Assembly: GCA_963737155.1 (NCBI GenBank) | Contig: CAVTRN010000002.1 | Coordinates: forward strand, 864,001 to 928,000 | From: Nitrospirota bacterium | Lineage (GTDB): Bacteria > Nitrospirota > UBA9217 | DNA: 64,000 nucleotides | Direction: 5' to 3' | Notes under the pieces: model-generated | The model's database searches: none | Told to the model about the DNA's origin: nothing | The model's input: the letters and a program-made list of their open reading frames with translations, nothing else | Part shown: piece by piece, positions 59,840 through 63,720 of the stretch | Layout of the letters: every line of letters begins with the position of its first letter | Numbering within the stretch: position 1 is the first letter of the stretch | Program-made: the position numbers and the translations under genes

Positions 59840-60433
59840 ATGAAGAAGTTATTGTCCAGTTTAGCGATTGTTGCCGTTGCTTGTGTTGCACCAGTAATCG
59901 TATTTGCTGCAGGCGGTCATGATAGTTTAAGCTGCACCGGTTGTCATGCGATTCACACCGCAAAGGAAAAGAAACTGATTTTTGCTGTCGAAAAAAACAA
60001 GACGGATATCAATCCAAGGACTAAACAGCCTTATGCCGGTATCACCGCACTCTGTCTTGGTTGCCATGAGACCCCCGAAAAGGGCGGACAGGGAATCAAG
60101 CCAATTGAAGCGCACATGAGCCATCCCTATGGAATTAAATCTGTAAACCCGAAAGTTGCGCGCGTTCCCGATGAATTATTAAGAAGTGGGAATTTCGAGT
60201 GCGTGAGCTGTCACGATCCGCATCCTTCTAACACCAATTATAAATACTTGAGGGTCGATACTGCCAACGGCGGCAAAATGGAAAATTTCTGCGCAGTATG
60301 CCACCCAATGAAGGCTGATCCTAAAACGGCTGCTGAAAAAGCGCAGTTTTTTAGCAGCATGGATGAACAAGCCTATGGAATGGCGTCACCAGAGGGCACA
60401 ATGAATCCTCCGGCAGCAGGGAAAAAACAGTAA
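59840..60433 (+). CDS. Exported tetraheme cytochrome c
   Basis: Signal peptide; four CXXCH motifs (CTGCH, CLGCH, CVSCH, CAVCH); AGGAGG RBS. Confidence 0.9.
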   Translation: MKKLLSSLAIVAVACVAPVIVFAAGGHDSLSCTGCHAIHTAKEKKLIFAVEKNKTDINPRTKQPYAGITALCLGCHETPEKGGQGIKPIEAHMSHPYGIKSVNPKVARVPDELLRSGNFECVSCHDPHPSNTNYKYLRVDTANGGKMENFCAVCHPMKADPKTAAEKAQFFSSMDEQAYGMASPEGTMNPPAAGKKQ

Positions 60434-60510
60434 GCACACGTTGAATATCGAGCTCATTACTGGCTAGTATAATGGAATGAGTTTCCAGATAGACTATCAA
60501 TCTCCATATC

Positions 60511-60542
60511 TATTCAGGCGGGCATCACTGCCCGCCTGAATA
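60511..60542 (+). terminator. Strong hairpin after the cytochrome gene
   Basis: TATTCAGGCGGGCA-tcac-TGCCCGCCTGAATA, 14-bp perfect stem; no clear U-tract. Confidence 0.55.
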
Positions 60543-60612
60543 ACATTATTCCAACGGAATAACAGCTAACAAATATTTTAAATCATTTCTTCCCCTGCCT
60601 GCTATACAATTA

Positions 60613-60824
60613 ATGATCTTATATTTTTATAACATTCATACAGCTCTATCTCTGCCGGGCGTGGTCGTATTGTTGTCCCTGGCTGCTGACGCAATATTCG
60701 GCTCCGGAATAGGGGCCATCTATGTTAATAACGGCGCCACGGTCGGCGCATCACTGGCTTTCCGGGCCGGCTATCTGTTTCGTGACGGGACTCAGTAGTT
60801 GTTCGGCTCTCAAATGGAAAAGAT
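60613..60824 (+). pseudogene. TVP38/TMEM64 (VTT/DedA superfamily) gene, 5' part
   Basis: TALSLPG..LSLAA.AIFG...G.IYVN.GATVGASLAF..YLFRD; internal stop; continues in frame at 63447 once the insertion is removed. Confidence 0.8.
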
Positions 60825-60953
60825 GGGTATGCGGATTCAGTAGTTGATTACCTGAAAACCCCGGTCCCAGTAAACTGATATGGTTGACAGTTGTCAATAG
60901 GGAAAATAGTCTCCTGCCCCTTTTTTTCAAAGGGTTCATTGTTTCAATATGTT

Positions 60954-61143
60954 CCAAGGCGTAAGGAGGGACGGGGCCGACTTGTGCGACGTTTGATCAC
61001 TCTGATATTCGCGGGTTTGACCGCAAGACCTTTCTTCGCCGCGGAGCTGCCTCGCTCTATTAACGGAAGTTCGGCATTGCCTTATTCCATAGTTTGGACG
61101 AGGATTCTCCGTAAACGTGGCCGCGTCCCCGCTTATGCCTTGG
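60954..61143 (-). ncRNA. Predicted IS110 bridge/seek RNA
   Basis: Outer stem plus two internal-loop hairpins; loop segments AAACTAT, AATAG, GTCT, ATATCAGA match the reconstructed target and donor around the CT core. Confidence 0.7.
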
Positions 61144-61404
61144 AGGTTGTTTATTGTTTGCTTGCGTCCTCCTTTGTTTTGCCTCAGTCGTTTGAGTCGC
61201 CATTGTTACCGGGTGACTTCAAGTTTTTGATCCTGTTCTTTGGAAAGCTCGATGCTCCCGCCTATGTTGACGATTTGAGCGGTTTTTACCTTTGAGGGTT
61301 GATTTTTTCTTTCATAAATGCCCCAGGATTGATTTTCCAGAGACAGTCCATGCCAAGATACCCCCCCAAGTTTTGTGTGACGCCTTGTTCTTGGGTTAAT
61401 CTTC

Positions 61405-62517
61405 TTATGCGCTCTGGAGATTCACTTCCCGGGCAATTGCCCATATGAAGCCGCATAGTTCCCTGGCAATGGCGGTTACCACCTTGTTCCTGGGCTTCCC
61501 TTTGGCCGTGAGTTTACGGAACCGTCCGCAGAGACGCACCTGGGCTTTCCAGGAGATATCACAGATATTTTTCGGCAGCCCCTCCTGCCGCTTGAGGATT
61601 ACCCGGCTCACTCGGGCCGGCAGACTGTAGGCTTGGGCCGCTTCAATCAATGCGCGCCTGACGTGGGTGTTTCCGGTTTTGGTGATAGCACCCCGTCTGG
61701 TGCTGTCGCCGCTGGAGTATTCGGAAGGGACCAATCCAAGGTATCCCATGAGCTGCTTGGGATTTTCAAAACGTCCCAAGTCTCCGATCTCGGCCATGGT
61801 GGTCGCGGCAGTTACATCCGCGATGCCGCGTAACGATTGGATTGCGAGTGCAACAGGGGCCGTTCGGCATGTGGGCATAAGCGTTTGAATCTGCTCCGTA
61901 AGCCGGGCCACACGCTCTGCGCATTCCTTCACCGTGTTGATGTACTCTTGCAGCGTGATCTGCTGTGCAGGGTGTGGCATCTTGATATCAGACAACCAGC
62001 GCATGTGGGCTTGGGTCCATGCGGTTTCTCCAGAGTAACGGTGTCCATGCCGCAGGAGCATCGCGCCTAACCTCTGCCGGGCAGTGCGATGGGCCTTGAC
62101 TGCGTCTTCGCGGCATCGGGTCAGGTCTCTCATGGCTTCATCATCCTCTTGGGGCACGTAAACAGGAGTCAGTTCTCCGGCCCGATACAGCCTGGCTAGA
62201 CTTTGCGCGTCACGACGATCGGTCTTGACGCGATCGCCGCTTTTCTTGGGAATCAGCGATGGTGCCACAACCGTGCATTTGTAACCTCTCTTGGTTAGAT
62301 GGCGGTATATTTCGTAACCACACGGCCCGGCTTCATAGACGAAGTGCAGTTCTGAGCCTTTGCTTTCAAGCTTTCTGACCATTTTGTCCAATGACGCCAT
62401 GTCGCCGCCGATTTTGCCGTAGTAGCGAACCTCTTGGCTGCCGCCAATTTCGGCCGTTGCTACAGCTATGGAGTTTTTTGCTGAATCGAGTCCTACGATT
62501 GTGATAGAATCTTTCAT
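61405..62517 (-). CDS. IS110-family DEDD recombinase/transposase
   Basis: VGLD, YEAGPCG, KTDRRDA, GLVPSEYSSG, TKTGN..RRALIEAA, AIARE; ATG at 62517 with AGGAGG RBS. Confidence 0.95.
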   Translation of the reverse strand: MKDSITIVGLDSAKNSIAVATAEIGGSQEVRYYGKIGGDMASLDKMVRKLESKGSELHFVYEAGPCGYEIYRHLTKRGYKCTVVAPSLIPKKSGDRVKTDRRDAQSLARLYRAGELTPVYVPQEDDEAMRDLTRCREDAVKAHRTARQRLGAMLLRHGHRYSGETAWTQAHMRWLSDIKMPHPAQQITLQEYINTVKECAERVARLTEQIQTLMPTCRTAPVALAIQSLRGIADVTAATTMAEIGDLGRFENPKQLMGYLGLVPSEYSSGDSTRRGAITKTGNTHVRRALIEAAQAYSLPARVSRVILKRQEGLPKNICDISWKAQVRLCGRFRKLTAKGKPRNKVVTAIARELCGFIWAIAREVNLQSA

Positions 62518-62632
62518 GACCTGCCTCCTTGTTTGTGGCTCTGTATTTGGACACCCATTGCATCCAAGTATAACCCACGGTGACAAGGGGCAGGTCACTT
62601 TTTCAACTGTCAACCATTATGTCTATTGATTC

Positions 62633-62661
62633 TTGACAATTATTAACACATATGTTAATAT
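62633..62661 (+). promoter_or_regulatory. TA promoter with palindromic operator
   Basis: TTGACA-17 bp-TAATAT; palindrome TATTAACA-cata-TGTTAATA (62641-60); ATG only 6 nt after the -10, so possibly leaderless. Confidence 0.65.
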
Positions 62662-62667
62662 CCAACC

Positions 62668-62994
62668 ATGAGTTGGACGGTTACGTACTATAACGAGCAA
62701 GTTAGGAAAGCCGTTTATTCCGTGCCACGCGGTATTCTTGCTCGATACTTGCGCTATGTAGAATTGATGGAGAAACATGGTGTCGATTTAAGAGCTCCCC
62801 ATTCAGAACCCATGGGAGAAGGATTATTTGAATTGAGACCTAAATCACGGGAAGGCATTGGCCGGGTACTTTACTGTACTTTAGCAGGGAGCACAGTTGT
62901 AATACTTCATTCAATTGTAAAGAAGACTCAAAAGACACCACAAAAAGATATAGATATAGCGCGACAGCGTATGCGGGAGGTCAAAAATGGATAA
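62668..62994 (+). CDS. Type II TA toxin, RelE/HigB (Gp49-like)
   Basis: PHSEPMGEGLFELR...EGIGRV.YC, VILH..VKKTQKTP..DI..AR.RM. Confidence 0.9.
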   Translation: MSWTVTYYNEQVRKAVYSVPRGILARYLRYVELMEKHGVDLRAPHSEPMGEGLFELRPKSREGIGRVLYCTLAGSTVVILHSIVKKTQKTPQKDIDIARQRMREVKNG

Positions 62995-63301
62995 ACGTAA
63001 TAAATATAAACCAGTAAAGCATACAAAGGAAGACACGGCCAAACTGCTTGCTTCTGATCCGAAATTAAAAGCCGCCTATGATGCGCTTGAGGATGAATTC
63101 GGCGCACTTGATGCGCTTTTAACAGCGCGTCGTAAAGCGGGGCTTAGTCAAGCAGAGGTTGCCCGGCGCATGGGAATGAAATCGTCATCGCTGGCGCGTA
63201 TTGAAACATCACTTGGAAATCGTAAACATTCACCGTCGTTAGAAACATTACGCAGATATGCCGAAGCTTGCGGTAAAAAACTCATAATAAAGATTGCTTG
63301 A
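62987..63301 (+). CDS. XRE/HTH antitoxin (HigA-like)
   Basis: AAYDALEDEF, ARRKAGLSQAEVARRMG, PSLETLRRYAEACG; overlaps the toxin stop. Confidence 0.9.
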   Translation: MDKRNKYKPVKHTKEDTAKLLASDPKLKAAYDALEDEFGALDALLTARRKAGLSQAEVARRMGMKSSSLARIETSLGNRKHSPSLETLRRYAEACGKKLIIKIA

Positions 63302-63438
63302 TCATTGGGGAAAAACTCCCATAATCGAGATGGTCGAGCAGGGACAACTGTAGACAAAATCAACCACTAAATCCGATTTAGTGAAGTGCATGCGCGGTGG
63401 CAGAAATTTGCAAAACCAACCAGTAAATCCGAATACCT

Positions 63439-63720
63439 AAAAAGATGGGCAGCGAACTGGAAACTAGAAGCTTCATATCTCTTTTCCCTGCTGCTCGTCC
63501 TGGTATTTCCTTTTTCCCTGATCAACTTCGTCGCAGACTACCCAAAATGCCCTTGCGGATATTCCTTCTCGGTATCGTGATTGACATTCCGGGCAGCTTC
63601 GTGTACTCCAACATGGCAGCCGGCCTTGCAACGATCACACGCACGAATGAAATTACATCTCCTCACGGGCTCGTTTTTTACCCCTGCTTGGAATCTTCAC
63701 CCTCGTCCCACGGCCTATTA
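63439..63720 (+). pseudogene. TVP38/TMEM64 gene, 3' part (frameshifted)
   Basis: MGSELETRSF / YLFSL.LV.VFPF.LINF / IPGSFVYSNM...LATI fragments spread over different frames. Confidence 0.75.

Follow-up and report, generated by a model that had tools for sequence, protein, structure and literature searches.

A 1,750-bp insertion of repeated sequence lies within the 64,000-nucleotide stretch of DNA analysed here (the window: contig CAVTRN010000002.1, positions 864,001 to 928,000 of the forward strand, assembly GCA_963737155.1, from a Nitrospirota bacterium). Does this element encode an RNA that tells its recombinase where to insert, and do the loops of that RNA read the element's own ends as well as its target? 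Recombinases of the IS110/IS1111 type, guided by RNA, are under development for genome writing, and characterised RNAs of the IS1111 type are few. An initial annotation of the locus had proposed a complete system, made of enzyme, RNA, donor and target. Our analysis leads us to conclude, with good confidence, that the element is an active insertion sequence (IS) of the IS110 family with an IS1111-type layout, and that its 3' non-coding end encodes a bridge RNA or seekRNA of about 190 nt, which would guide a DEDD recombinase acting through a circular form of the element. Feature coordinates, given as positions in the window, are collected in Table 1.

An intact insertion sequence with IS1111-type architecture

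The genome contains six full copies of the element, at 100% BLAST identity and with 0-5 base differences each, none of them within the RNA region. When the six 1750-bp copies were aligned, similarity ended exactly at 60875 and 62624, which are the limits first proposed; contigs of two public DNA runs (X1 and X2), spanning about 60864/60871 to 62626 and then continuing into unlike flanks, agree with them. The recombinase frame is free of internal stops in all six copies, with at most one amino-acid change. The element is an intact, recently active IS and a well-supported natural case of the RNA-guided recombinases described in 2024, a kind already known.

The enzyme was rightly assigned to the IS110/IS1111 recombinases. 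Both DEDD_Tnp_IS110 (PF01548, E 9.7e-17) and Transposase_20 (PF02371, E 1.1e-23) pass their curated cut-offs, which places the protein in the IS110 family. Among solved structures, the closest in sequence are the ISCro4 transposase (PDB 9t56; E 2.1e-11, residues 7-296), a distant relative for which only the protein sequence was compared, and the IS621 transposase (phmmer E 1.4e-10, C-terminal domain only). Identity to an ISEc11-family transposase is 24% over aligned residues 6-361, and about 24% to IS5075-family enzymes.

The IS1111 group is defined in PMC11208160 by subterminal inverted repeats of 7-17 bp, and PMC11187229 describes for it a GL-P----S(t)G motif in the C-terminal domain and transposases of 330-350 amino acids. 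The present element has a perfect subterminal repeat of 14 bp, and its non-coding region is longer after the recombinase gene (530 nt, 60875-61404) than before it (107 nt, 62518-62624). The motif is found as GLVPSEYSSG at residues 261-270, where the ISEc11-family enzyme aligns with GLVPKQTGSG. Placement in the IS1111 subgroup rests on architecture, that is, on the repeats, the downstream non-coding region, the motif and the order of the guides described below. The repeats sit 5 nt inside the left limit of the + strand and 7 nt inside the right limit, counting the CT included at each limit. Across the family the ends are conserved, the left one reading core, ACATA, repeat and the right one repeat, ATC, core.

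A conserved RNA structure predicted downstream of the gene

The 3' non-coding end is predicted to fold into a long closing helix of 25 pairs around two hairpins, each with an internal loop. The fold has a free energy of -83.8 kcal/mol against a mean of -57.9 for shuffled sequences (z -6.3, none of 200 shuffles being as good), and an identical fold was recovered inside the full 536-nt 3' end. The four stems named at the outset (CCTCG/CGAGG, GGAA/TTCC, GCGGCG/CGTCGC and GCGG/CCGC) are present in both the minimum-free-energy and the centroid folds, and the motifs assigned to the loops lie on the minus strand exactly where they had been placed: AAACTAT at 61095-61089, AATAG at 61061-61057, GTCT at 61029-61026 and ATATCAGA at 61008-61001.

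A covariance model was derived from two sequences of this genome, the present copy and a diverged sibling. Among 79 related loci, with recombinase identities of 51-92%, it matched 70, on the sense strand and immediately after the gene. Eight of the nine misses are truncated genes or contigs ending at the gene; L031 alone has an intact gene with downstream sequence and yet no RNA match. Against the sense strand the model reaches about 230 bits, against the antisense strand about 37.

Pairing was then scored in 50 sequences, one per distinct source. Standard pairs occupied 89.1% of cells, against 37-44% when the partners were slid by 1-3 columns; an alignment fitted to the model favours the structure, and the slid controls carry the same bias. 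Compensatory changes were found at 41 of 56 pairs, and none of 500 shuffles reached any of the five measures. Pairs predicted inside the proposed guide strands were mostly unpaired across the family, as expected of open loops. Rfam 15 has no family matching 60875-61404 at E values up to 1; the scan, over 60000-63500, gave three weak matches, all off the RNA and far under their gathering scores.

The RNA model also matches more distant elements, one on a Rhizobium plasmid (57.6% protein identity, 68.7 bits) and one on a Klebsiella pneumoniae plasmid (44%, 28.9 bits). Both are unannotated: L111 (Rhizobium jaguaris, locus 2356-2553) and L109 (K. pneumoniae NZ_CP073792.1, locus 2310-2490) have no gene listed at their positions in the plasmid tables. 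The genome itself holds decayed fragments of related elements. L008 (G000:C1:1293503-1294244) retains loop 1 and has lost loop 2, and L013 (G000:C1:252857-253039) and L014 (G000:C2:266569-266712) retain loop 2 and the right end without a gene; L010 (G000:C2:819629-819804) and L015 (G000:C2:337106-337223) are further remnants.

Loop 1 and the insertion site

On the + strand, all six copies are flanked by AAA before the left CT and by AT after the right CT; a further T follows in four of them, and bases further out are not conserved. The motif AAACUAU in the 5' strand of loop 1 equals the + strand of this target and AAUAG in the 3' strand equals its complement, the two guides sharing the core. 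In its RNA-sense strand the whole element has a single AAACTAT, the one in loop 1. The putative target and circle-junction donor of the initial annotation follow from the element ends, and its concern that other insertions might lack such a target was not borne out, as the remaining five all carry AAACTAT(T).

Alignment of the family shows a conserved scaffold and hypervariable loop-1 strands, in which only CUAU (5' strand) and UAG (3' strand) are maintained. We looked at whether guides and targets vary together by swapping guides among elements and scoring only the positions beyond the core. Between the 5' strand and the right-end flank (49 pairs, 29 distinct guides), 4.12 of 6 positions agreed, compared with 1.70 after permutation (0/20000). 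The contiguous match beyond the core was of 5 bases in 23 pairs, 4 in 14 and 3 in 4. For the 3' strand and the left-end flank (47 pairs, 23 distinct guides), the values were 3.39 and 2.24 (0/20000). These pairs were drawn from 75 sources, after exclusion of rows that lacked a flank or had an aligned guide strand of any length other than 10 nt. Three rows that scored zero because their right ends were misidentified (L033, L035 and L039) were kept and lower the observed means. As related elements are not independent, the permutation counts should not be read as true probabilities; the effect is nonetheless large.

The sibling used to build the model, L007 (G000:C1:1719225-1720771; L007:1506-3046), has the same ends as the present element, with identities of 70% for the gene and 82% for the RNA. 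Its loop 1 reads AACCUACUAU / GCUACUAGAC, with guides ACCUACU and CUACUAG. Where the present element has CAAACU, L007 has CCUACU, and it sits in ACCTACT (8/8, including one base past the core); on the other side, CTAtTAG agrees at 6 of 7 positions. Its guides would direct insertion to ACCTACTA-type sites, versus AAACTATT for the present element. Guide and target having changed jointly, two retargeted versions of one scaffold coexist in one genome.

The junction cores of relatives were also variable. At loci with a GGAATCC target (L034-L037, L040, L043-L045 and L062), where the elements lie in a REP-like GGAATCCGG repeat, the right-end junction core is GG, and it differs from the donor AG at other loci too (L069, L093, L048, L060, L046, L056, L067; L070-L074, L083). 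The non-AG cores are GG in the elements of the REP-like repeat and AA in the others, and the loop-1 5' strand holds the matching CC or UU. One family of five copies, whose guide reads UU, has AG at the junction core of four members and AA at that of the fifth. These cases suggest that the target core need not equal the donor core and that mixed cores are resolved in either direction.

Loop 2 and the donor ends

The 3' strand of loop 2 contains AUAUCAGA, identical to what a circle would bring together at its junction: the last bases of the right end (CCATATCAG), then the initial base of the left one. Of 33 distinct combinations of end and loop 2, 32 have AUAUCAG together with a CATATC right end. 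The exception, L089, has AUAAGAG together with a right end changed from CATATCAG to CATAAGAG, which is a compensatory double change. The K. pneumoniae plasmid relative has AAUAAGAG at the equivalent position, the comparison being made on the loop side. As to the left end, a guide GUCU had been proposed in the 5' strand. The RNA-sense strand of the element contains GTCT at seven places, so this 4-nt match taken alone is within chance. Its family equivalent is GUC followed by A or U, and it changes with the left end in L067 and L089 and does not in L070, L078/L081, the L069 group and L059. We also considered an AGACA-like sequence in the 5' half of the same strand, read against the top strand of the left end; this candidate fits L049, L054, L041, L058 and L070, but not most other elements, and was dropped. 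The right-end donor guide is therefore supported and the left-end guide tentative: the enzyme, the fold, the target loop and the right-donor guide of the proposed complete system stand, and GUCU, not significant alone, does not have the same standing.

These results bear on another model, that of the seekRNA, in which only loop 1 guides DNA, loop 2 is a scaffold for protein binding, the ends are recognised through the inverted repeats, and the AUAUCAGA and GUCU matches have no function. We consider this model rather unlikely, though it has real points in its favour. Loop 2 and the ends hardly vary, so most of their agreement is uninformative, and the left-donor match lacks covariation in the four sets of loci just listed; for ISEc11, PMC11187229 reports that a short seekRNA of 82 nt with target matches only sufficed for movement. 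Against a pure scaffold stand the joint change in L089, the AAUAAGAG at the same loop position of the K. pneumoniae relative and the fact that the 8-nt junction match sits at the position equivalent to that of the loop-1 3' guide.

A second alternative is that the conserved structure works as single-stranded DNA, with guide and target pairing DNA to DNA as in IS200/IS605. Covariation between loop and flank cannot by itself separate an RNA from a DNA of the same strand. Wobble pairs are common, however (UG in 26 of 50 sequences at one pair; GU/UG in 8/50 and 11/50 at two pairs of helix 6). On the opposite strand each would turn into a C-A mismatch, and they point to the sense strand 3' of the gene. 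Moreover, homologous systems have been shown to use RNA, and the DEDD enzyme is unrelated to HUH transposases; this alternative is very improbable. That the matches arose by chance, the 3' end being a structured untranslated region or terminator and the protein picking the target, is scarcely credible: the matches are short (7, 5, 4 and 8 nt) and the RNA is known from DNA sequence alone, but chance is contradicted by the permutations over 29 and 23 distinct guides, by the target shared by six of six sites and by the sibling in which guide and target changed together.

A proposed route from circle to insertion

Thus, a bridge RNA reading the target through loop 1 and at least the right end through loop 2 is the reading we retain. 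Sequence comparison shows the fold of the RNA, loop-1 strands that spell both strands of the insertion site and a loop 2 that carries the right end across the circle junction. The subsequent steps are proposed from homologous systems (ISEc11, ISPa11, ISKpn4 and IS621). Excision would release the element as a circle, whose joined ends would create a promoter, TTGACA-N18-CATAAT, transcribing the recombinase gene and the RNA together. The RNA would be cut from this co-transcript and bind the recombinase; loop 1 would pair with both strands of the AAA-CT-ATT target while loop 2 held the joined ends. The DEDD recombinase would then exchange strands at the core, a copy of which would be left at each junction.

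The putative promoter halves lie in the two ends of the element, and an N17 or N18 geometry was found in 46 of the 56 related loci with both ends identified. A promoter scan turned up nothing resembling a sigma-70 site on the minus strand from the gene to the RNA; the only sites were a weak one (9 of 12) in the flank beyond the left end and another past the RNA, and the total of three is close to the shuffle mean of 1.8. According to PMC11187229, the sole promoter of ISEc11 arises by joining of the ends and its RNA is processed from a co-transcript. The present RNA is probably made from the circle along with the recombinase mRNA, and the 25-pair closing helix could mark the processing site. 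One public RNA run (X20) shares 5% of the words of the element: in a 220-nt contig, 40 nt (60984-61023) align at >=90% between flanks resembling the loop 2 of a relative, and a 224-nt contig lies in the gene with 10 differences. As these contigs come from relatives and contigs cannot show transcription, they are no evidence for this element. Neither an empty-site join nor an end-to-end circle junction was present in the public-run contigs; the sole joint listed, in which 82 other letters replace 60897-60982, is the variant of a relative.

Several points weigh against the guided-recombinase account. The transcription, processing and protein binding of this RNA are transferred from homologues. 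The tested ISEc11-family enzyme is only about 24% identical, and the RNA model had no match at the ISEc11 locus, nor at another Escherichia coli IS110-family locus, so the mechanism is carried across a large distance. The left-donor guide is weak (4 nt, with mixed covariation in the family). Finally, 192 AAACTATT sites of the genome are free of the element (base composition predicts 158.8), as are 8 CCAAACTATT 10-mers, which match the guides at two further bases, and a single 12-mer with full complementarity to both loop strands; base pairing alone does not, therefore, predict which sites are used.

Table 1. Window coordinates of the element and of its proposed functional parts
Feature	Positions	Strand	Remarks
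Whole insertion sequence	60875..62624	-	1750 bp, including the CT core (AG in element orientation) at each junction
Recombinase gene	61405..62517	-	370 aa; DEDD/RuvC-like N-terminal and Transposase_20 C-terminal domains
Predicted bridge/seek RNA	60953..61144	-	192 nt; long closing helix around two hairpins, an internal loop in each
Loop 1, 5' strand (UCCAAACUAU)	61089..61098	-	putative guide identical to + strand target AAACTAT; would pair with the other strand of the right-end flank
Loop 1, 3' strand (GUUAAUAGAG)	61055..61064	-	AAUAG would pair with + strand CTATT of the left-end flank
Loop 2, 5' strand (AAGAAAGGUCUU)	61025..61036	-	tentative left-donor guide GUCU, matching the left-end junction over 4 nt
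Loop 2, 3' strand (GAAUAUCAGAGUGAUCAAA)	60992..61010	-	proposed right-donor guide AUAUCAG(A)
Target half AAA, left flank on +	60872..60874	+	identical in 6/6 copies
Target half ATT, right flank on +	62625..62627	+	AT in 6/6 copies; T third in 4/6
Subterminal inverted repeat, right end	60880..60893		ATGGTTGACAGTTG on +; 14-bp perfect repeat with 62604-62617
Subterminal inverted repeat, left end	62604..62617		CAACTGTCAACCAT on +
TTGACA, right end, reading outward	60892..60897	-	putative -35 half of a promoter formed only at the circle junction
CATAAT, left end	62616..62621	-	putative -10 half of the junction promoter

Targeting stringency

Short guides, and hence relaxed targeting, had been suggested for this element. 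The guides themselves are not short, since each loop-1 strand is physically 10 nt long, as in relatives that match 5 bases past the core; what is short is the part matched by the six sites (3 + core + 3). At positions -4 and -5, the occupied sites agree with the CC of the guide in 2/6 each, which is near chance. Among close relatives, L023-L026 likewise share only AACCT. With just three bases matched on each side of the core, the element reads about 8 bp and has many possible sites. One possible explanation, which we hold only tentatively and think less likely to be right than wrong, is that this is a naturally low-stringency bridge recombinase, in which a core-proximal seed of about 8 bp dominates recognition and the distal guide bases are dispensable, the 8 free 10-mers and the free 12-mer of fuller complementarity being left unused. 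If true, seed dominance could vary among close relatives, which bears on the off-target behaviour of engineered bridge recombinases.

Comparison with known systems

The closest counterparts in layout are the IS1111 elements with seekRNAs described by Siddiquee et al. 2024 in PMC11187229 (ISEc11, ISPa11, ISKpn4 and ISPst6), where 3' seekRNAs are reported to co-purify with the transposase and to be essential and reprogrammable. Like the present element, they are described as having subterminal repeats, a long downstream non-coding region and the GL-P----SG motif, one RNA segment per target strand with an overlap at the insertion point and the top-strand match 5' of the bottom-strand one, a promoter formed only by joined ends, and natural retargeting among relatives. 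The order of guides agrees: in element orientation, AAACUAU (complementary to the target top strand) lies 5' of AAUAG (bottom strand). A bridge RNA is predicted in the right end of 93% of IS1111 elements (PMC11208160). Compared with the ISEc11 family, the present recombinase is longer (370 amino acids vs 330-350) as well as divergent at 24% identity, its six sites share only about 8 bp, and the system is known from sequence alone.

With IS621, the element shares two internal loops, the target loop being 5' of the donor loop, strands that would pair with opposite DNA strands, and a 2-nt core overlap, reading CT on the DNA strand that matches. The guides are of similar length: with the core counted, those of the present family span up to 7 nt (left) and 5-7 nt (right), and IS621 is reported to have a 9-nt left target guide and a 4-nt right target guide (Durrant et al. 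2024, PMC11208160; Hiraizumi et al. 2024, PMC11208158). The initial annotation had likened both the CT core and the order left target, right target, left donor and right donor guide to those of IS621. This is correct on the strand opposite the gene; in element orientation, the core is AG and the order is reversed, as PMC11187229 describes for IS1111 seekRNAs relative to IS621. The RNA-DNA geometry thus matches that of IS621 when seen from the opposite DNA strand. Other differences are that the IS621 RNA lies in the left end, upstream of the gene, whereas the present one lies in the right end, after it; that the present element has long subterminal repeats and encloses both hairpins within the 25-pair closing helix; and that its long donor guide reads the right end, whereas the IS621 donor is read over 7 bp on the left and 2 bp on the right (PMC11208160, PMC11208158).

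The clade forms a natural retargeting series on one conserved scaffold, with at least 29 distinct left guides. Relatives with guides come from Nitrospirota, Desulfobacterota, Gammaproteobacteria and others, in addition to the Rhizobium and Klebsiella plasmid relatives. The same-genome pair with different guides, the very short effective targets and the differences between junction and donor cores make these elements useful comparative material for specificity rules. The picture of how bridge RNA and seekRNA systems work is unchanged, and the value lies mainly in the retargeting series and the very short effective target.

Surroundings of the insertion

An uninterrupted target was not recovered in the genomes of 30 relatives, searched with the element and 600 bp on each side. 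In a congener (G001), the right flank is 85% identical, similarity beginning about 5-10 bp past the junction, and the left flank is not adjacent. This right flank carries a toxin-antitoxin-like pair adjoining the insertion (window 62668-63301, + strand), in which a Gp49/HigB-type gene (PF05973, E 1.7e-25) overlaps a helix-turn-helix gene (PF01381, E 4.3e-11); the congener has this flank, at the same 85% identity, without the element beside it. On the other side, window 59840-60433 (+ strand) encodes a multihaem cytochrome c of 197 amino acids with a signal-peptide-like start (Paired_CXXCH_1, E 1.1e-11).

The spacer between the stop codon of the gene and the RNA is also variable. It is about 260 nt long here, about 230 nt in the 91%-identical L018-L021 and about 60 nt in most other relatives. 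Within it, window 61270-61400 holds a repeat that recurs at two further places in the genome (L016 and L017, about 130 nt alignable), and its core of 55-65 nt is found at several places in the congeners G009, G010 and G011.

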